Source of the DNA: Eledone cirrhosa
Taxonomy: Eukaryota
Length of the DNA stretch: 64,000 nt
NCBI GenBank assembly: GCA_964016885.1
Contig: OZ024742.1
Coordinates: 26,226,001 to 26,290,000, forward strand
Reading direction: 5' to 3'
In this document: positions 2,045 through 60,440 of the stretch, piece after piece
Numbering within the stretch: position 1 is the stretch's first letter
Layout of the letters: every line of letters begins with the position of its first letter
Notes under the pieces: generated by a model
What the model was told of the DNA's origin: nothing
The model's database searches: none
The model's input: the letters and a program-made list of their open reading frames with translations, nothing else
Translations under genes and position numbers: made by a program

Positions 2045-2128
<84 letters not shown>

Positions 2129-2172
2129 CGTAAAATAAGAAAATTATAAAATTAACTTATTACTAAAATTTC

Positions 2173-2255
2173 ACTCCCAACTAATTAGTTTCTGAAAGGG
2201 AATAAACATACTTTCCGAAGAAGCGTACAGAGAAGCCTTTCGTCATCAGGGAAGT
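2173..2255 (-). ncRNA. Type I hammerhead ribozyme motif, family R1
   Basis: Minus strand: ACTTCC-CTGATGA-C-GAAAGG...CCTTTC-A-GAAA-CTAATTAG-TT-GGGAGT; stems I and II pair, stem III is palindromic, GUU site. Confidence 0.75.
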
Positions 2256-3132
2256 CTATTCTCAACTAAGTTTCCAGGCAATACGTGGACACAGGGAACT
2301 CATACAAAAATAATTCAGTGGATGGAAAAAAGCAAAGCGTGGACTAAATTCCTAGCCATTGAGAAAATCACTGCCTACTGCGTCGGTGGCACATTCAAAA
2401 GAATCAATCACGTGTCATCGGGTCAATCAGTGGAAAGTGGTTTGTTAAGAAGACAGCAGCCTGACTGTTACTATAGCAGCAGTTCTGGCTAATTTTTGCT
2501 CGACAAATAATTTGGAGATGATTATATAGAATTAGTATATCTAGTAACATATATATACACAGATGCATACTTATGCTAGCAAATATATAGGTTTTGTCTT
2601 AGAAACTTTGTGGTTCAATGCATGGGGTTGCAGAACAATAATATGAGAGACGTAAAATAAGAAATTATAAAATAAGAAATTATAAAATAATGAAATTTTA
2701 GTAAATAAGTTAATTTTATAATTTTCTTATTTTACGTCTCTCATATTATTGTTCTGCATCCCCATGCATTGAACCACAAAGTTACTAAGACAAAACCTAT
2801 ATATTTGCTAGCATAAGTATGCATCTGTGTATATATATGTTACTAGATATACTAATTCTATATAATCATCTCCAAATTATTTGTCGAGCAAAAATTAGCC
2901 AAAACTGCTGCTATAGTAACAGTCAGGCTGCTGTCTTCTTAACAAACCACTTTTCACTGATTGACCTCGATGTCACGTGATTGATTCTTTTGAAGTTGCC
3001 ACCGACGCAGTAGGCAGTGATTTTCTCAATGGCTAGGAATTTAATCCACGCTTTGCTTTATTCCATCCACTGAATTATTTTTGTATAAGTTCCCTGTGTC
3101 CATGTATTGCCTGGAAACTTAGCTGAGAATAG

Positions 3133-3215
3133 ACTTCCCTGATGACGAAATGCTTCTCTGTACGCTTCTTCGGAAAGTATGTTTATTCCCTTTCAGAAAC
3201 TAATTAGTTGGGAGT
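3133..3215 (+). ncRNA. Hammerhead motif, family R1 (one stem II mismatch)
   Basis: ACTTCC-CTGATGA-CGAAATG...CCTTTCA-GAAA-CTAATTAG-TT-GGGAGT. Confidence 0.65.
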
Positions 3216-3656
3216 GAAATTTTAGTAAGTTAGTTAATTTTATAATTTTCTCATTTTACGTCTCTCATATTATTGTTCTGAAACCCCATGCATTGAACCA
3301 CAAAGTTACTAAGAGAAAACCTATATATTTGCTAGCATAAGTATGCATCTGTGTATATATATGTTACTAGATATACTAATTCTATATAATTATCTCCAAA
3401 TTATTTGTCGAGCAAAAATTAGCCAAAACTGCTGCTATAGTAACAGTCAGGCTGCTGTCTTCTTAACACACCGCTTACCATTGATTGACCTCGATGTCAC
3501 GTGATTGATTCTTTTGAATTTGCCACCGACGCAGTAGGCAGTGATTTTCTCAATGGCTAGGAACTTAGTCCACGCTTTGCTTTTTTCCATCCACTGAATT
3601 ATTTTTGTATAAGTTCCCTGTGTCCACGTATTGCCTGGAAACTTAACTGAGAATAG

Positions 3657-3739
3657 ACTTCCCTGATGACGAAAGGCTTCTCTGTACGCTTCTTCGGAAA
3701 GTATGTTTATTCCCTTTCAGAAACTAATTAGTTTGGAGT
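3657..3739 (+). ncRNA. Hammerhead motif, family R1 (stem I mismatch)
   Basis: ACTTCC-CTGATGA-CGAAAGG...CCTTTCA-GAAA-CTAATTAG-TT-TGGAGT. Confidence 0.6.
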
Positions 3740-3902
3740 GAAATTTTAGTAAGTTAATTTTATAATTTTCTTATTTTACGTCTCTCATATTATTGTTCTG
3801 CAACCCCATGCACTGAACCCCAAAGTTACCAAGACAAAACCTATATATTTGCTAGCATAAGTATGCATCTGTGTATATATATGTTACTAGATATACTAAT
3901 TC

Positions 3903-3944
<42 letters not shown>

Positions 3945-3947
3945 CTT

Positions 3948-3999
<52 letters not shown>

Positions 4000-4001
<2 letters not shown>

Positions 4002-5335
4002 TATTTATTTTAGATACGTTGCGATCTAGCTTGCAGGACTCCCATATGGGCTTATACCGCGGCAATACACTGAGCCTATCTAGCCATAAAAGTGGTCACG
4101 ATCTAGGCAGTTTTAATAAAAGATTTAATTGCAACATTTAATGAGTTAGGACTTAGGATCACAGTAGCTACTAACCTTAGTAGTGTAGATTTCTTAGATG
4201 TAAATTTAGATCGTCACACACATAACTTTAGCCATCTATAAGCTAAATGAAAAACTAAATTACATGCCCAAGAACTCATGCCACCCACAGTTTCCAGAAA
4301 GGTCCTGAAAAATATCGGCACTAGAATCTCTAATCTCTCTTCTAATAAAACTATGTTTGACAGAGCGGCACCTTGTTAGTGTTAGCTAACAGTGACTTCT
4401 CACAATCAATTGCTTGCCCACCTACTAACGCCTATAAAAATAGAAAAAGAAATTGTGCGCCCATCCCAACTCTCTTCACTCAACGTTAAAACTAATGTAG
4501 ATAAATTATATGTAGCTCTTTTGAATAGGCACTTCCGCATAGGCCATACATACCGTTACAACTTTAACAGACACAGGGTGAAACTAGGATATTTCTGTGC
4601 TAAGAATATGAAGGCCCACGTCACCAACAACTGTATGAGCAGAACCCCATCAGGATGCTCTTGTTGAAGGCCTGAAACTTGCTCCATTGAAGAACAGTGC
4701 AACAGGCTCGCTGTAATTGATGAAGCTGTAGTCAGTTCTATCTGACCAAATCAACAAGAGCTCAAATCCTATGTAGGTATGTTGGAGGCCTGTTTTAAAG
4801 AACGCTTCCTGAATCATCTGTCGACATTCAGACACCCCGGACAAACGATCGTCCACGAAGCTTGCGAGCCACATATGATCCCTCAAGGACACAGGCGTGG
4901 ATTACTCCATTCAATGTTAAATTATTAGTAAGTCTAAGCCCTACGTCTCGTGGACTGTGCATTGAAGTCATAATCAAATTCCTGAGGAGATGGGTAAAAG
5001 CGCCTGTAGAAATCAAGGGAGGAAATTTTCTCGTCTGTCCGCACGTTTGGAAACACCTATTACGTAAAGCTCCACGCTGACTGATATGAATAATCTATTA
5101 TACTCTCGAATGAATAACATGAATAATCTATTACATTCTGAGTTTCAACAGTTATTTCCCTCGCACCGATCCTACGTCAGTTAACCTCCCCTTTGGAAGT
5201 TACTTCTTCTGCATATACTTATTCGTATAATTGTTTTTACTTTTCCGTATAATCTCATTTAAACCGAGCTGATGATCCGAAAGGAAAAAATTGTTCTCGG
5301 GAATGGTGAATTAACAGTTGTGGAACTAATTCTAT
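4000..5335 (+). pseudogene. Degenerate 5'-truncated Penelope-like element (RT C-terminus, GIY-YIG, 3' HHR remnant)
   Basis: Fragments GLYRGN (cf. GLYRDD), VDFLDV, NVKTNV...[25 protein letters not shown]; decayed HHR CCGAG-CTGATGA-TCCGAAAGGA-AAAAATTGTT-CTCGG at 5264-5300; same family as 26463-27175. Confidence 0.8.
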
Positions 5336-14952: not shown

Positions 14953-17370
14953 CCTGTTAGCGCCCCATTTATGGGTTAAATAAATACCTTATTCGAGTGG
15001 CGCCAGTAAGGTATTGTTAGCCATTGAAAAGAAATATGGAGAGTCTATCTAACAGCACTAGGTTTAGAGCCCTTAATTACATTGTCAAGGAGCAGTCTTT
15101 TCGTTATGACTCTGCTGGCTTAGAGCCACAGGGAGGGCCAGTGGATGATGGATCAGCTGTCTCTGAGCCATCAAAATGGGCACTTTGAATGTGAGGACAA
15201 TTCGGACGATGGAGAAGAGAGAGGAGTCGGGACATCTGTTCGATGAGAGTGTACGCAGATACTTGCGTTCCAAGAACACAGGATACTACACGATGAGCCC
15301 GCGAGGAGTGTGATGATTGGGAAGAGGAGCCAGCTCATCACCACATCGGCAGTGAGGAACATGACCAATGCTGCAGTGGGAGGAGTGGCTTTTCTTTTCA
15401 GCACAAAAACCAGTCTATTGGTGAGGGTAATAATACCTGTCTCCTTGCGAGTGTTGAGGGTCACCTTCAATGGAAACCCAAGACTGACAGTCATCTCGGC
15501 CTATAGTCCAACCGAGGGAGACAGTGATGTGAGTGCGGAAGAGTTCCATGAGGAGGTGTGTAGAGCTGTGAACACCACACAAGCACACAACATTCTGATT
15601 GTTTTGGGGGACTTCAATGCACATCTGAGTAAGGAAGGCAGTGAAGATCCTTGCTGGTACTTCCATAACTACACCAAACGAAATGAGAGACTACTGAGAG
15701 ACACCCTGCTGGAGGCGAACTTGATAGCGACCAACCTAAGGTTTAGGAAGATCCCGGGGAATATGTGAACCTACATCTCAGTTATGCACCTGTCCAAGTC
15801 CCATATTGATTTCATTCTGGTGAGGAAAAAGTGGCGGAATAGTGTTCTGAACACAGAACCATACAACTATTTCAGTACACTGGGTAACGACCACCGGCTT
15901 ATTATCAGTGAGGTCCGGGTGAGCTTAAGAAAGAGCAAAGCTCAGCCCCTGATAGCAATCTATGACTGTGGAAATTTCAAGGAAGATGATAAGCTACAGG
16001 AGAGGTTCACAGTGGAAGTGAGGAACAGGTTCAGTGCTCTGTGTGGAGAGACAGAGGAGAGAGAGATTGGATGGACTAAGGAGCGTGTGACGAGGAGGTA
16101 CGGGCACTTCACCAATGCATTGGCGGAAGCAAGTGAGACCCTGGCGTCGAGGAGAAAGAAGAAAAGGAAGCACATCAGCTCTGCAGGCCCAAATGTGTGT
16201 GCAGCCAGAGAACACATGAAACTGCCAAGGACGAATTCTATGCTGATCCTACGGAGGAGAGGATGGAGACAGTGGAGGTGATGAGGGAAGAACTCTGTAC
16301 CGCTTACATTGAGGCCAGAGAGGAGGCACTGATAGAGAAGATCAGAAGTGTGGAGAGAGCGGTTAACAGGTCTGATGTAAGGAGAACTGGATGATCATCA
16401 ACGATAACATAGGGAGGAAGGGAAGGTTTTCGACTCAGATGCAGGGAACAGGGCCCGAGGATAGGAAGAGGAAATGGCTAGACCATTTTAGGACCCTACT
16501 AGGAGAGCCGCTCTCCACAGCCCAGAGCACTGGGGAGATCAGGCGGCTGTTTGAAGAACTGGATATTGAGACAGAGCCCTTCCCCATAGAGGTGGTTCAG
16601 AGAGCCAAGAAGAAGATCAAGGAGGGCAAGATTCATGGAGAAGATGGAGTGGCATCATAGGTGATGAAGATGTGTGATTTTCATGATATCATCCTGGGGT
16701 TCTGTAACCAGGCACTGGAGAAAAGAGTTGCTCCGAATCGGTGGCGGATCAGTAACATCGTGCCAGTACACAGAAGGGAGATCTCTCTAACACCAACAAC
16801 TACATGGGGGATCTCACTGACGTCACTTGTGGCAAAGACCCTTAACCGGATGATTCTTAACAGGATCCAGCCTGAGATGGAGAAGAAGCTCGGGGACAAC
16901 CATGACGGCTTCAGAGAGGGAAGATCAACCACCAGTCACATCCTGATGCTGAGGAGGATATTAGAGGGAGATAGAGCAAAGTGCCTTCCTGCGGTCATGG
17001 TTTCCATTGACTTTAGTAAGGCCTTTGATTCTGTGGACCGTCACTGCCTGATGAAGATCTTACAGGCTTATGGAATCCCCAAGAAGATAGTGGACCTGAT
17101 ATCACTGCTCTACACCAAAACCAAAGCCCAAGTCATTACAACCAATGGGATGACAGAGTTCTTTGTGATACTGAATGGAGTGCTCCGGGGTTTTACATTA
17201 GTTCCCTAACCTTGTATCATCGTAGTGGACTATTATATGCGCTTTGCACTGGAGAAACACCAGGATACTGGATTTAATGTAGCACCAGCTCAGAGCAGGA
17301 GAGTTAAGGGGAAAAATATATCGGATGCTGAATTTGCCGACGACAGAGTTTTGGTGACAAATACAGTGAT
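14823..17370 (+). mobile_element. RTE-type non-LTR retrotransposon, 5' part (APE endonuclease and RT), decayed
   Basis: MGTLNVRT, GGVAFL, VISAYSPT, LGDFNAH, HIDFILV, GNDHRL (APE); GISLTS, GFREGRSTTSHI, IDFSKAFDSV, AEFADD (RT); stops and frameshifts; 5' boundary uncertain. Confidence 0.9.
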
Positions 17371-17374
17371 TTGA

Positions 17375-17870
17375 TGCATGTCCAGCCAACCTCAGTCTCC
17401 TCTGTGTCACTTTTGAGCTGACTTTTGGGAGGCTCCCATACAGCTCTGAGTTTTTCATCCTCAGTGTATACTGATTAATGTTCAGAGCCATCTTCAGCAT
17501 TCTCGTGTAGCACCCATCCACCATCTGAGTAAGTTTATTGGTCAGTGTCCAAATATCAGACCCGTACAGTAGCACAGAATCCACTACAGCAATGAAGAGG
17601 CGGGTTTTCAGGTCTTTACGAAAGTCTGACTTCCACCCCGATCTCAAGCTGTGGCAAACCGCCTAGGCCTTGCTCTTCCGCTCAACCACATCATCTGTAT
17701 ACCCAATCTTTGCTCCCAAATACAGGAAGTCCTCAACCAATTCTAGCGGCTTCCCGCCTACATTACTGAACCCCTTTGGCTTCTCAACATTCTCTACCAG
17801 ATATTTTCTTTTAGTCTCATTCATTCTCCGCCCCATAGTCATCGATACAGTCTCAACCTCCTGCATCAAA
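17375..17870 (-). mobile_element. RTE LINE internal/3' fragment
   Basis: ORFs 17198-17647 and 17663-17887 (VEDFLYLGAKI, SVLLYGSDIWTLT). Confidence 0.85.
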
Positions 17871-18881
17871 TCATTCCCGAGATCCATGGACGAGTTCTCT
17901 CCAGCGGTCTCTGTCCCTCATTATCGCTGCCATGTCCTGCGTCTCCAACAGACCAGTGTCTGTCCTTAGGGCATCAACATATGTTAACCTTGGTCTTCCT
18001 CTTCCAGTGTGTCCATGTAGGGGCTCCCAAAGGAGCACGGAGTGCAATGTCAACTCTGGATGTCGGTGAGCATGTCCAGCCAACCTCAGTCTCCTCTGTG
18101 TCACTTTTGAGCTGACTTTTGGGAGGCTCCCATACAGCTCTGAGTTTTTCATCCTCAGTGTATACTGATTAATGTTCAGAGCCATCCTCAGCATTCTCGT
18201 GTAGCACCCATCCACCATCTGAGTGAGTCTCTTGGTCAGTGTCCAAGTCTCAGACCCACACAGCAGCACAGACTCCACTACAGCAATGAAGAGGCGGATT
18301 TTCAGGTCTCTACGAAGGTCCGACTTCCACACCGATCTCAAGCTGTGGCACGCCGCCCAGGCCTTGCTCTTCCTCTCAACCACATCATCTTCCGTATTCC
18401 CAATCTTTGCTCCCAAATACAGGAAGTCCTCAACCAATTCCAGCGGCTTCCCGCCTACATTAGTGATCCCCTCTGGCTTCTCAACATTCTCCACCAGATA
18501 TTTTGTTTTAGTCTCATTCATTCTCAGCCCCACACTCATCGACACAGTCTCAACCTCCCGCATCAAATCCTCTGCCTCCTTCACTGTATTTGTCACCAAA
18601 ACTATGTCGTCGGCAAATTCAGCATCCGATACCTTTTTCGCCCCAACTCTCCTGCTCTGAGCCGGTGCTACAGTAAAGCCAGAGTCCTGGTGTTTCTCCA
18701 GTGCAAGGCGCATACAATAGTCCACTACGATGATTAAAAAGGTAGGGAGCCAATGTATCTCCCTGGAGCACTCCAGCCAGTATCTCAAAGAACTCTGTCA
18801 TCCCATCAGGTGTAATGACTTGGGCTTTGGTGTTGGTGTAGAGCAGTGATATCAGGTCCACTATCCTCTTGGGGATTCCAT

Positions 18882-49446: not shown

Positions 49447-51608
49447 ATGCGAAAACACAACATTGACTTCTCTACCAAGAACATCCCAATCCCACCGAAA
49501 AAACTTTACCTTCGGATGCTCACGAAAAAAATCGATCTATTTGCGAAAAGACTTAGATGGAGAACTTTTTTCTATGACAGATATTGCGACAACCAAACTT
49601 CGGCACCAAGGAGAGATTCGGATTTATTACCGACAAATCTCCGCCCCTGAACCCCTTGCTCGCACCCTTCGAGAATGACCTCTTCCAACTGGTCAAGAAC
49701 ATTAAATTTGAACCCAGACACAACCGATTCCTACAAAAACTCCGTAGCAACTTAACAGAGTATGATAACACAAATGACATCATGGTGCATTCGGATAAAA
49801 CTGGGAACCTATACTTTGTCAACCCTGACAGATACCACACACTGATCAGGAGCAGCCTAAACTCCACCTATAAAAAGGCCAACCACCCTTGCATCGAGGA
49901 CATAAATCGAGATGGACAACAAATCACCTCCAGCCTCGGGGTCGCCGACCGCACGGAACCTCTAGACCCACGGACACCATACTTCACACTGAAGGACCAT
50001 AAATCCGATTTTGACCGTAAACCCTCTATCAGGCTTATTAACCCAACGAAGACCGACATAGGGAGAATCAGCAAAAAAATCCTAGACCGCGTGATACCAA
50101 AAGTCAAGCAACACACCCGACTTAGCCTATGGATCAACACCCAGGAAGTAATCTCCTGGTTCAGCAATATGGAGGATAAACGAGAAACTAAATTCATACA
50201 GTTCGACATAGAGAGCTACTATGCTTCAATCACCTTACCGCTACTTACTGCTGCCTTGGACTTCGCCGAAACACTTGTGCCCATCACTGACCAGGAAAGA
50301 AAAATCATCCTCCACGCCAGGAAGACAGTCTTACTCTTTGACGACTCTAAATGGATAAAAAGAGCTCCCGACTCACCCTTCGACGTCAGCATGGGCGCCA
50401 CGGATTCGGCGGAGGTCACAGATCTTATAGGATTATTCCTAATAGCCAAACTCACTGATATGTTTCCTGCATTCGGTGGTGGATTGTACCGTGATGATGG
50501 GCTCCTTACCCTTAAAGGGTACAACCCCAGTAGTACAGATCGGGTCCGGAAACAATTAATCAGATTCTTCCGCGACTGGGGATTTAAAATAACCCTACAA
50601 ACGTCCCTGACCCGAGTAAACTTCCTGGACGTGACCCTCGACCTCGAAAACGACCTGTACTACCCATACAGGAAACCTAATGACAATCTGCACTACATCC
50701 ACCGCCGATCAAACCATCCTAGGAACATCACAAACAACCTGGTCAAAAACATCTCCCTCCGCATATCCCGTTTGTCAGCTAATGAGCGGATATTCGATGA
50801 ACATGCGCCTTATTACAACCAGGCCCTCAAGCGGAGTGGTTTCCGGGAGGAAATATCCTACTGTCCAGCTCCCATTAGCGGAACCAGCAAGAGACACCGC
50901 CGCTCACGCAATGTAACATGGTTCAATCCTCCCCACAACGCAGAGGTGACAACTCCCATCGGGAAACTATTCTTTAGGCTCATTGAAAAACACTTCCCAT
51001 TACAACACCGCTACCACAACATAATTAACAAAAATACCATCAAACTCTCTTACAGCACTACACCAAACTTCGCACAAAACATCGTCTCCTCTAACAACAA
51101 AAAACTCAACCCCGATGGCAGAAATAACCTAAATAGCAATGGAGAACCGACCAGGAGGTGTAACTGCCCGGATAGATCTATTTGCCCACTCGACAATAGA
51201 TGCAGAGACCGTAATGTGATCTAACAGTGCAACGTGAGGACGGATACCTTCAACAAAGCCTATATAGGACTTACCGCATGTGACTTCAAGACCCGGCTAT
51301 ACCAACATAGACATACCTTCCGAAACCCGGCCCGGCTTCACGCCACTACACTTTCGGGCCACATATGAGACCTCAAGGACAACAACATCACCTATGATCT
51401 CACTTGGAGATTACTGTCCAGAGCCAATTCTTACACGGGAGGACGCCGTCCGTGCAATTTATGCTCGGAGGAAACTTTACAGATGCTGTTTTCGACGGAC
51501 CAACTCCTAAACAAGAAAGATGAACTGGTTACTGCATGTAAACATAGATTGCGTAGGACTTACCTCGCCCTCAAACCCGATAATGACCCGGGGGGGGGGG
51601 TAGACTAG
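49447..51608 (+). pseudogene. PLE polyprotein (RT plus Cys-rich linker plus GIY-YIG endonuclease) with one frameshift and two stops
   Basis: ATG 49447 MRKHNIDFSTKNIPIP...RLRWRTFF; frameshift at ~49590; SDKTGN, FDIESYY, SMGATDSAE, GLYRDDG, FLDV; CNC...CPL..C; VI*(TAA 51222)QC...AYIGLT; HI*(TGA 51366); CNLC..E...CKH. Confidence 0.9.
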
Positions 51609-58730: not shown

Positions 58731-58792
<62 letters not shown>

Positions 58793-58807
58793 AGAGAGAG
58801 AGAGAGA

Positions 58808-60349
58808 GAGAGAATTTAGTATATCTACTAACATATGCGTACAGATGTACGCTAATGCTAGCAAATACACAGGTTATGTCATAGTACCTAGGTGGTTCAA
58901 TGCAGGAGGATGCAGAACAATAATATAAAAGACGTAAAATAAGAAAATTAAAAAAACTTTTAAAAAAAATTAACTTACTAAAATTTTCACTCCAACTAAT
59001 TAGTTTCTGCAATGGGATAAAGACAGTTACGTAATATAACTGTCGAGAATTGCGTCATCAGGGAGTCTATTCTCAGCTAAGTCTCCAGGCAATGCGCGGA
59101 CACTGGGGACTAATATAAAAATAATAATAATTCGGTAGATGGAACAGCTAGCGGGGACTGGATTCCATGCACTGAAAAGCTTGCTGTCTCTGGTCAAATG
59201 GCAGATTCTAAAGAATCAATCACGTGACACTGAGGCTAGTCGGTAGGAGTGGGATGGTAAGATGACAGAAGCCTACTATCACACCAATAAATTAGTACCG
59301 GTTTTGGCAGGTTTGCTCAACAAATAAATAATTTGGAGATAAATATAGAGAATTTAGTATATCTACTAACATATGCGTACAGATGTACGCTAATGCTAGC
59401 AAATACACAGGTTATGTCATGGTACCTAGGTGGTTCAATGCAGGAGGATGCAGAACAATAATATAAAAGACGTAAAATAAGAAAATTAAAAAAAAATTAA
59501 AAAAAATTATCTTACTAAAATTTTCACTCCAACTAATTAGTTTCTGCAATGGGATAAAGACAGTTACGTAATATAACTGTCGAGAATTCATTGCGTCATC
59601 AGGGAGTCTATTCTCAGCTAAGTCTCCAGGCAATGCGCGGACACTGGGGACTCATATAAAAATAATAATAATTCGGTAGATGGAACAGCTAGCGGGGACT
59701 GGATTCCATGCACTGAAAAGCTCGCTGTCTCTGGTCAAATTGCAGATTCTAAAGAATCAATCACGTGACACTGAGGCTAGTCGGTAGGAGTGGGATGGTA
59801 AGATGACAGAAGCCTACTATCACACCAATAAATTAGTAGTGGTTTTGGCACATATGACATAACCTGTGTATTTGCTAGCATTAGCGTACATCTGTACGCA
59901 TATGTTAGTAGATATACTAAATTCTCTATATTTACCTCCAAATTACTTATTTGTTGAGCAAACCTGCCAAAACCGCTACTAATTTATTGGTGTGATAGTA
60001 GGCTTCTGTCATCTTACCATCCCACTCCTACCGACTAGCCTCAGTGTCACGTGATTGATTCTTTAGAATCTGCCATTTGACCAGAGACAGCGAGCTTTTC
60101 AGTGCATGGAATCCAGTCCCCGCTAGCTGTCCCATCTACCGAATTATTATTATTTTTATATGAGTCCCCAGTGTCCGCGCATTGCCTGGAGACTTAGCTG
60201 AGAATAGACTCCCTGATGACGCAATGAATTCTCGACAGTTATATTACGTAACTGTCTTTATCCCATTGCAGAAACTAATTAGTTGGAGTGAACATTTTAT
60301 TAAGTAAGTTAATTTTTTTAAAATGTTTATAAAATGTTCTTATTTTACG

Positions 60350-60356
<7 letters not shown>
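58808..60356 (-). mobile_element. Non-coding ~540-bp HHR-bearing repeat (family R2, diverged relative of R1): ~2 tandem units plus one inverted unit
   Basis: AGAATTTAGTATATCTACTAAC at 58811 and 59349; 59852-60356 is the reverse complement; HHRs at 58989-59066 (minus) and 59526-59607 (minus). Confidence 0.8.
60208..60289 (+). ncRNA. Type I hammerhead (family R2)
   Basis: ACTCC-CTGATGA-C-GCAATG...[GACAGTTA/TAACTGTC hairpin]...CATTGC-A-GAAA-CTAATTAG-TT-GGAGT. Confidence 0.75.

Positions 60357-60440
<84 letters not shown>

Follow-up and report, generated by a model that had tools for sequence, protein, structure and literature searches.

Non-coding hammerhead repeats of Eledone cirrhosa with the insertion ends of Penelope-like elements, probably mobilised in trans by the Hydra clade

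The window analysed here is a stretch of 64,000 nucleotides from the genome of Eledone cirrhosa (assembly GCA_964016885.1, contig OZ024742.1, positions 26,226,001 to 26,290,000), in which two copies, R1 and R2, of a repeated element (hereafter R) are embedded in (TA)n microsatellites. The units of R are about 525 bp long and carry a hammerhead ribozyme motif, and an original prediction made from the sequence of the window had read them as retrozymes with a selected RNA fold and a peculiar C.A at the foot of one stem. We consider it likely that R1 and R2 are copies of a high-copy, non-coding element resembling the retrozymes that lack long terminal repeats (non-LTR retrozymes), which was copied into (TA)n in trans by the reverse transcriptase (RT)-endonuclease of Penelope-like elements (PLEs) of the Hydra clade. 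Statements on published work refer to the accessible portions of the papers cited.

The R1 and R2 insertions

R1 (2119-3912) consists of a minus-strand and a plus-strand arm arranged head-to-head, with their 3' ends pointing outward into (TA)n, and R2 (about 58808-60359) has the same two-armed layout. The inverted arm of R1 (2119-2673, minus strand) ends at a short site (S, about +61, counted from the predicted cut), beyond which lies the left-hand (TA)n (1923-2122, no strand assigned); its hammerhead core, from CUGAUGA to GUU, occupies 2179-2249 on the minus strand, with the predicted cut between 2179 and 2178. The plus arm (2691-3912) comprises two units of about 520 and 524 bp and a further 178 bp, namely unit b (2691-3209, plus strand; core 3139-3209, in which a stem II pair is broken, GAAATG), unit c (3210-3733, plus strand, 524 bp from cut site to cut site; core 3663-3733) and a 3' partial unit (3734-3912, plus strand), which ends at a long site (L, about +178-181) followed by the right-hand (TA)n (3903-4001). 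In R2, the long arm of about two units (about 58808 to 59850-59917, minus strand; cores 59531-59602 and 58994-59061, the second core lacking 4 nt) has the L-site end, while the second arm (59853-60359, plus strand; core 60213-60284) has the S-site end, again followed by (TA)n. Two of the six hammerhead cores in the window (3139-3209 and 58994-59061) are damaged.

The units measure 524 bp in R1 and 537-541 bp in R2 and are 72-75% identical, so that the description of the two copies as homologous but diverged, together with its coordinates and sequence claims, was correct; the inverted arms of both had gone undescribed. Just 3' of the L site lies a hairpin of the form CTCC..GTYGAGC, common to Hydra-clade PLEs (3394-3413, plus strand), and further such hairpins are found at 2870-2889 and 59936-59959 on the plus strand and at 2498-2517 and 59315-59338 on the minus strand. 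Between the L end of R2 and its (TA)n stands a (CT)10 run (58791-58813, minus strand), which is missing from the internal copies of that site.

The repeat family in the genome

The exact core pattern has 8,604 matches in this 3.0-Gb, microsatellite-rich genome against none for a reversed control, and is therefore not a product of chance. We assembled 45 loci by similarity to R1 and R2, 70 by the core pattern, all of them within the first 57 Mb of contig C1, and another 20 out of a list of cores with a base other than C at the stem II foot, which is not a random genome sample; after removal of 11 duplicates, 124 distinct loci remained (104, plus 20 of a subfamily with A.A in place of C.A). Units are 507-571 bp long across the family, and 49 full units form nine clusters that are 9-28% apart, with 21 more units coming from the A.A subfamily, so that R comprises at least nine subfamilies. 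Most loci hold one to three units and are scattered over many contigs, the family being dispersed and mobile as retrozymes are. The divergence of R is 3.3% for R1 and 4.6% for R2.

The largest array (L259, G000:C1:152492675-152499367) contains 12 A.A units, of which units 6 and 10 are 1.3% and units 7 and 11 are 2.3% apart, a pattern that points to later local duplication of a block. A metagenome scan with the core pattern gave seven matches, none with stem I/II pairing on inspection, and these were taken as chance.

Insertion ends and shared hairpins

The ends of the insertions carry most of the evidence. Among 174 arms, 79 have their 3' end at S (about +61), 78 at L (about +181) and 17 elsewhere. 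Where both ends of a two-armed insertion are defined, one is S and the other L in 53 of 53 cases in the 104 loci and in 10 of 11 in the 20 A.A loci; overall this gives 63 of 64 (p about 4e-18 against an expectation of 0.5), the exception being an S+S pair (L266), and a further 15 two-armed loci with an undefined end were left out of the count. Unpaired arms are divided between 22 S and 21 L. The same rule holds in ORF-bearing PLE families of this genome (ORF, open reading frame): all 14 inverted pairs with defined ends in families A, B, D, G821 and K are S+L, with the respective sites at +36/+102 in D, +34/+111 in A, +37/+114 in B, +43/+134 in G821 and about +50/+138 in K (the hammerhead families H and J, whose ends are not clean, were not scored). 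A PLE 'tail at one end' is known (PMC8557442, PMC3846280), and two internal RT start sites together with a predicted dimer that cuts both strands account for it (PMC11167929).

The ends are also marked by common sequence elements. The motif CTCC-N-GTYGAGC follows the L end by 6-15 nt in R1, in R2 and in the five families in which motif and L end could both be located. It is present in seven of eight autonomous Hydra families and in 58 of 70 full R units as compared with 6 of 5,000 shuffles, a contrast flattered by the pattern having been written after these sequences had been viewed. On the 3' side of the S end, R and seven of the eight autonomous families carry a related hairpin. R has a type I hammerhead in a closed, non-coding, dispersed tandem unit, and in these respects the retrozyme reading of the original prediction stands, but it had missed the PLE-type ends and common cis-hairpins that form the main evidence.

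Both arms derive from one subfamily in 27 of 30 insertions, which is consistent with a single RNA molecule as template. In the pattern-picked loci, which had been chosen for containing a core, 88 of 101 arms extend beyond the cut site and 47 are longer than a single unit, so that the template was either a circle or an uncut multimer. The 5' ends of these arms (L111-L180) fall within about 20 nt of the cut site in 14 of 101 cases, where 6.7 would be expected if they were uniformly distributed; eight of the 14 lie at +7 to +17 and six at or near the helix III palindrome, and either cut templates or RT stalling with fold-back may have produced them. The ends of R sit in (TA)n, which would mask any target-site duplications.

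One R2-type insertion (L045, 1328-2141) lies within a PLE RT coding region and has no (TA)n; its right end shares about 10 nt with the target, which suggests microhomology priming.

Relation to coding Penelope-like elements

Six-frame translation of the R1 and R2 units meets frequent stops in all frames, and R consists of head-to-tail tandem units without coding capacity, as retrozymes do. According to the original prediction, R would simply be the pseudo-long terminal repeat (pLTR) of a PLE if it were always attached to a coding one. This is not the case: no R unit is contiguous with a PLE ORF in any of the 124 distinct loci (95% upper bound 2.4%), and R is therefore not a plain pLTR. Fragments of PLEs do occur near R, in 18 of the 104 and nine of the 20 loci, either on the opposite strand, set apart from R by (TA)n or some other sequence, or split by R; six of these contacts were read base by base and the remainder judged from coordinates. 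The contacts at L045, L158, L268, L271, L277 and L287, considered as possible linkage, are nested or adjacent insertions or low-complexity matches.

As many as 104 of the 174 arms run back past the position where an ORF would be expected and meet the preceding unit, and in every subfamily the stretch from the L site to the next hammerhead is homologous and runs on without a seam. When loci of about 11 Hydra families were searched with a profile of the unit, no homology to their pLTRs emerged; the only hits were separate R insertions (L196, L201, L318) and one low-complexity match. DNA and protein searches of the genome with PLE queries, together with flank checks, yielded no parent PLE among the best 100-150 candidates scored in each search, out of tens of thousands of Hydra candidates, and the only relatives of the core with a short stem II are 17 deletion variants. 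Of the traits of a pLTR, R has neither the flanking ORF nor, in the families sampled, the homology, short hairpin motifs excepted; it does have the two fixed 3' ends, with a tail at one end of inverted insertions.

The candidate partners carry the motifs RW, DKT, CxCX5C, CxxC and CxH, a C-terminal GIY-YIG domain, (TA)n insertions and a pLTR hammerhead. Pfam gives no family for an intact 719-aa ORF or for a 548-aa ORF in the window, so their assignment to the Hydra clade rests on these motifs as defined in PMC8557442 (section 11), the absence of CCHH having been judged by eye. The partner ORFs are intact (714-832 aa), and their best-scoring copies differ pairwise by 1.1-3.6%, which makes them as young as R.

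The RNA fold of the hammerhead

Each unit contains a type I hammerhead, with an intact core and GUU, as in retrozymes. In 22 hammerhead regions picked to span the subfamilies, stems I, II and III and a second helix inside 'loop II' are paired in 95% of cells, whereas slid controls pair in 32-47%. Cells with changes on both sides number 46 against 15.9 in shuffles, a count of sequences rather than events that serves as support and not as a p-value. One stem II position takes A-U, U-A, G-C and C-G, and additional covarying helices are found along the unit beyond the hammerhead. The suggestion of a selected RNA fold is thereby strengthened, and the two compensatory changes between stem II of R1 (GAAAGG/CCTTTC) and of R2 (GCAATG/CATTGC) are as had been claimed. 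The supposed loop II insert does differ between the copies (36 nt in R1, 37 nt in R2), but it is actually an internal loop with a second helix, which covaries at all four of its pairs.

A candidate 5-bp pseudoknot could link GAGAA, in the 5' part of stem I, to TTCTC in the internal loop of stem II, and one subfamily shows a compensatory change in this pairing; pseudoknots between stems I and II are already known in hammerheads (PMC3088659). Helix III contains a perfect 12-nt palindrome (duplex -10.8 kcal/mol), and isolated hammerhead motifs are predicted to misfold as monomers, which together fit dimeric cleavage. An internal CACTCC at about +273 (CACTTTCC; CACTCTCC in units with one more base in the stem I strand) acts in the predicted folds as a decoy: in 13 of 19 circles it would pair with positions +1 to +7 at a probability of at least 0.68, while stem I exceeds a probability of 0.4 in three of 19. 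Circular folds are more stable than shuffles in seven of eight units (z -3.7 to -6.4). We consider self-cleavage of R RNA probable. Matches to MIR841 and other families that Rfam returns at a relaxed E-value are hairpin look-alikes caused by the inverted repeat.

Outside the hammerhead, TGTCACGTG (2966-2980 in the window, and homologues) is invariant across all 11 groups compared. It includes CACGTG, which we take to be an E-box, and the element could be part of an internal promoter.

The foot of stem II

The original prediction had singled out a C.A at positions 10.1/11.1 as a conserved peculiarity. C and A do flank stem II in R1 and R2, and the A before GAAA is nearly invariant (38 exceptions, scattered over subfamilies), but C.A is not family-wide, the C being replaced in 440 cores. 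The non-C bases among the 100 of these 440 matches that were listed are 67 A, 30 T and 3 G; the A replacements come nearly all from the A.A subfamily, and the T replacements are spread across subfamilies, the pattern expected of CpG decay. Among the matches listed, none of the subfamilies has a Watson-Crick pair at 10.1/11.1. Autonomous PLE hammerheads of this genome have A.G (families A and F832), U.U (D), U-A (B) or A-U (G821) at the same step.

Among the known traits of PLE hammerheads is an additional base that separates position 9 from 10.1 and has a G-C pair after it (PMC4209133), and a mismatch or extra base at the helix II foot has been described for PLE and axolotl hammerheads (PMC4209133, PMC7229834). 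The A.A subfamily and the autonomous PLEs with A.G or U.U show that C.A is not unique, and on this comparison the feature is better described as an unpaired step ahead of a G-C pair; to present C.A as a special conserved feature was to overstate it. The retrozyme interpretation is likely right for reasons other than C.A. The accessible parts of two hammerhead papers (PMC4209133, PMC3088659) do not describe C.A at this position. The search filters of the latter demand pairing at 10.1/11.1; such filters reject C.A and A.A hammerheads, and families of this kind are likely under-counted.

Runs of (CT)n at long ends

Where the internal copy of the L site reads TCTCT, the terminal L end has a run of (CT)4-48 ahead of (TA)n in 17 of 20 loci, as against one of 24 where it reads TCTTT (Fisher p 3e-8). 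Nine more L ends with other internal variants have four such runs, and the background frequency of (CT)n beside TA runs is 26 in 1,990. Internal read-through copies of the L site are not expanded, the opposite flank shows no CT or GA run in 17 of 17 cases, and in the window R2 shows (CT)n at its L end. Our preferred, though tentative, reading is that the RT of Hydra-clade PLEs re-copies a 2-nt template repeat at the start site in a telomerase-like manner and so writes the (CT)4-48 runs; perhaps it also wrote much of the flanking (TA)n. Slippage of DNA polymerase after insertion and the choice of compound targets are alternative sources of the runs, the latter being opposed by the clean opposite flanks. 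A comparison with empty sites gave candidate matches at only four loci, none informative on (TA)n synthesis, and in the literature searched we found no report of reiteration at initiation in PLEs.

Other elements in the window and beyond

A degraded Hydra-clade PLE lies directly beside R1 (4000-5335, plus strand) and comprises the end of an RT, a GIY-YIG domain and its own hammerhead at 5269; considered as a parent of R1, it proved to be a separate insertion of an old family. Another Hydra-clade PLE provides the 548-aa stop-free frame at 49578-51224 (plus strand), which spans RT and linker (DKT, YRDD) and by eye resembles a 788-aa family at L102. Further hammerhead-like motifs lie at 5269, 41389, 44932 (minus), 45951 (minus), 10229 (minus), 11889 (minus) and 63244 (minus)/63280 (plus), several of which match pLTR hammerheads of other PLE families. 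LINE fragments at 15247-18797 (matches to Exo_endo_phos_2 and RVT_1) are unrelated to R.

The genome contains a dozen or more hammerhead families. A very young PLE family of the Hydra clade with an 832-aa ORF (L309-L313), present in dozens of copies with identical scores, has the core CCGAAGA (U4 to C) and A.G at 10.1/11.1, and the PLE families at L176 and L242 have CAGAAGA. An unrelated hammerhead repeat (L283, G000:C4:171767856-171771134, minus strand), frequent among the fetched loci, is built of tandem units of 495 bp, has U.U at 10.1/11.1, shows no ORF and is likely another retrozyme family.

Mobilisation of R and its alternatives

Since the ends of R match those of this genome's Hydra-clade PLEs, we regard its mobilisation in trans by such elements as highly probable, and R is a probable member of the non-LTR retrozymes. 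In the mechanism we propose, tandem R copies would be transcribed, and the hammerhead would cut the transcripts after GUU, probably while paired as a dimer by way of the 12-nt palindrome of helix III. The monomers would be ligated to circles; there, according to the fold predictions, the decoy at about +273 would sequester the 3' strand of stem I and switch cutting off. A dimeric PLE protein would bind the hairpins and cut both target strands. On one RNA it would prime a first cDNA at S and a second at L and copy across the cut site, often for more than one round, and the two cDNAs would finally join head-to-head.

Several observations weigh against this interpretation. Besides the S+S pair, the loci left out of the pairing count and the motif pattern written after the fact, family D has no CTCC-N-GTYGAGC, and a local alignment of the post-cut region of R with the pLTRs of nine families is not significant (best p 0.02 of 54 tests), so that no single partner family can be named. 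In only 10 of 30 tandem and nine of 32 inverted pairs are the units of an insertion more similar to one another than to the nearest copy outside it, and these divergences therefore do not prove a circle made of a single monomer. The R1 copy of the window folds no better than shuffles (z -0.2; z -0.5), ten R1 units reach only -94 to -110 kcal/mol, and Rfam finds no hammerhead at its gathering score. In published experiments, eight of nine predicted Xenopus retrozyme dimers remained uncleaved in vitro (10.64898/2026.07.22.740005), and PLE insertion did not need hammerhead cleavage (PMC11167929).

Part of this evidence fits a related explanation, in which R is a non-autonomous PLE derivative moved as an uncut or partly cut linear multimer, with no circle, its hammerhead being kept for the processing of read-through transcripts or for protein-assisted cutting. 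With internal RT start sites, any linear multimer could yield copies of more than one unit, PLE insertion in vitro was not blocked by mutation of the hammerhead (PMC11167929), identity within insertions is not clearly above that between loci, and the 14 arm 5' ends near the cut would agree with linear templates that had been cut or with stalling of the RT at stem I. In a purely linear cycle, however, 5' truncation would shrink the arrays, yet 47 of 101 arms exceed one unit; moreover, some arrays are nearly identical inside (0-0.4% in L111, 0.6-1.7% in L049), and the predicted decoy pairs across the circle. We incline slightly towards a circular template and see the linear multimer as a real though lesser possibility.

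Two further explanations are much less probable. R could be only the pLTR or 3' end of an autonomous PLE family that escaped the searches, its copies being truncations; R has every insertion trait of a PLE end, and only the best 100-150 of tens of thousands of Hydra candidates were scored per search. The complete absence of ORF linkage in 124 loci, the seamless stretch from L site to next hammerhead in all subfamilies, the lack of pLTR homology in about 11 Hydra families and the restriction of short-stem-II relatives to 17 deletion variants make such a parent improbable, and a rare ORF-bearing parent would explain the origin of R without making the ORF-less unit non-mobile. Least probable of all is satellite DNA spread by unequal crossover or extrachromosomal DNA circles with a vestigial hammerhead: the 12-unit array L259, with its closely similar unit pairs, is what it would produce, but most loci are short and dispersed, 5' ends vary while 3' ends are fixed, the S+L rule holds, and the RNA covaries across subfamilies. 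The fixed PLE-type ends largely refute it.

If R was indeed mobilised by Hydra-clade PLEs, several consequences follow. The data on R name the Hydra clade as a source of the enzyme that mobilises an animal retrozyme, and a purely non-coding hammerhead unit with the insertion signature of PLEs and the cis-hairpins of intact young ones offers a ready pair, RNA plus RT-endonuclease, for work in vitro. The near-strict pairing of one short and one long end constrains the PLE mechanism to one RNA, two start sites and two target strands. Should the re-copying proposed above be true, PLEs and their circular ribozyme parasites would be a main source of this genome's microsatellites, and an asymmetric dimer of the RT would copy a single circle from both fixed sites, which a conserved hairpin marks. 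Template-dependent (CT)n provides a direct test of telomerase-like reiteration in the sister RT group of telomerase.

Comparison with known systems

A literature search that did not extend to subscription papers or supplements (including the hammerhead list of Craig et al.) gave no report of the R family or of a retrozyme with S+L pairing, and the accessible text of an octopus repeat annotation makes no mention of ribozymes (PMC13282606). The hammerhead of R most resembles the minimal hammerheads of PLEs (PMC4209133), with which it shares an extra nucleotide after A9, a conserved G-C behind it, a long helix II, a palindromic helix III and likely dimeric cleavage. It differs from them by a second extra base (A) before G12, which gives C.A or A.A, and by the internal loop and second helix in stem II; compared with canonical hammerheads, it is of PLE type in the extra bases at the foot of its long two-helix stem II, its GUU site and its 12-nt palindrome. 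A mismatch at the helix II foot also occurs in the axolotl retrozyme hammerhead HHR_Amex2 (U.U), and U10.1-U11.1 mismatches are known among hammerhead core variants (PMC3088659).

With the pLTR and tail of Hydra-clade PLEs (PMC8557442, PMC3846280, PMC11167929) R shares (TA)n targets, 5' truncation, head-to-head arms, a tail at one end and a hammerhead just upstream of both ends, but it has no ORF. Its tail of about 120 bp, like the 66-165 bp of this genome's Hydra families, is longer than the 30-40 bp in print, and the tail, there called 'optional' or 'often at one end' (PMC8557442, PMC3846280), here follows a near-absolute rule of one short and one long end.

Like the metazoan non-LTR retrozymes (PMC7229834; 10.64898/2026.07.22.740005), R has a non-coding tandem unit, a type I hammerhead, low GC content, thousands of copies and co-occurring PLEs. 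Its unit falls within the range of 51-972 bp given in the latter study and is longer than the retrozyme circles of 170-400 nt tested in 2020 (PMC7229834). For R a self-pairing off-switch is predicted, which according to that 2020 study most animal retrozyme circles lack. In these papers PLEs were proposed as the mobilisers of retrozymes from co-occurrence and pLTR homology; for R, which has no overall pLTR homology, the same link is drawn from the insertion ends and the common cis-hairpins.
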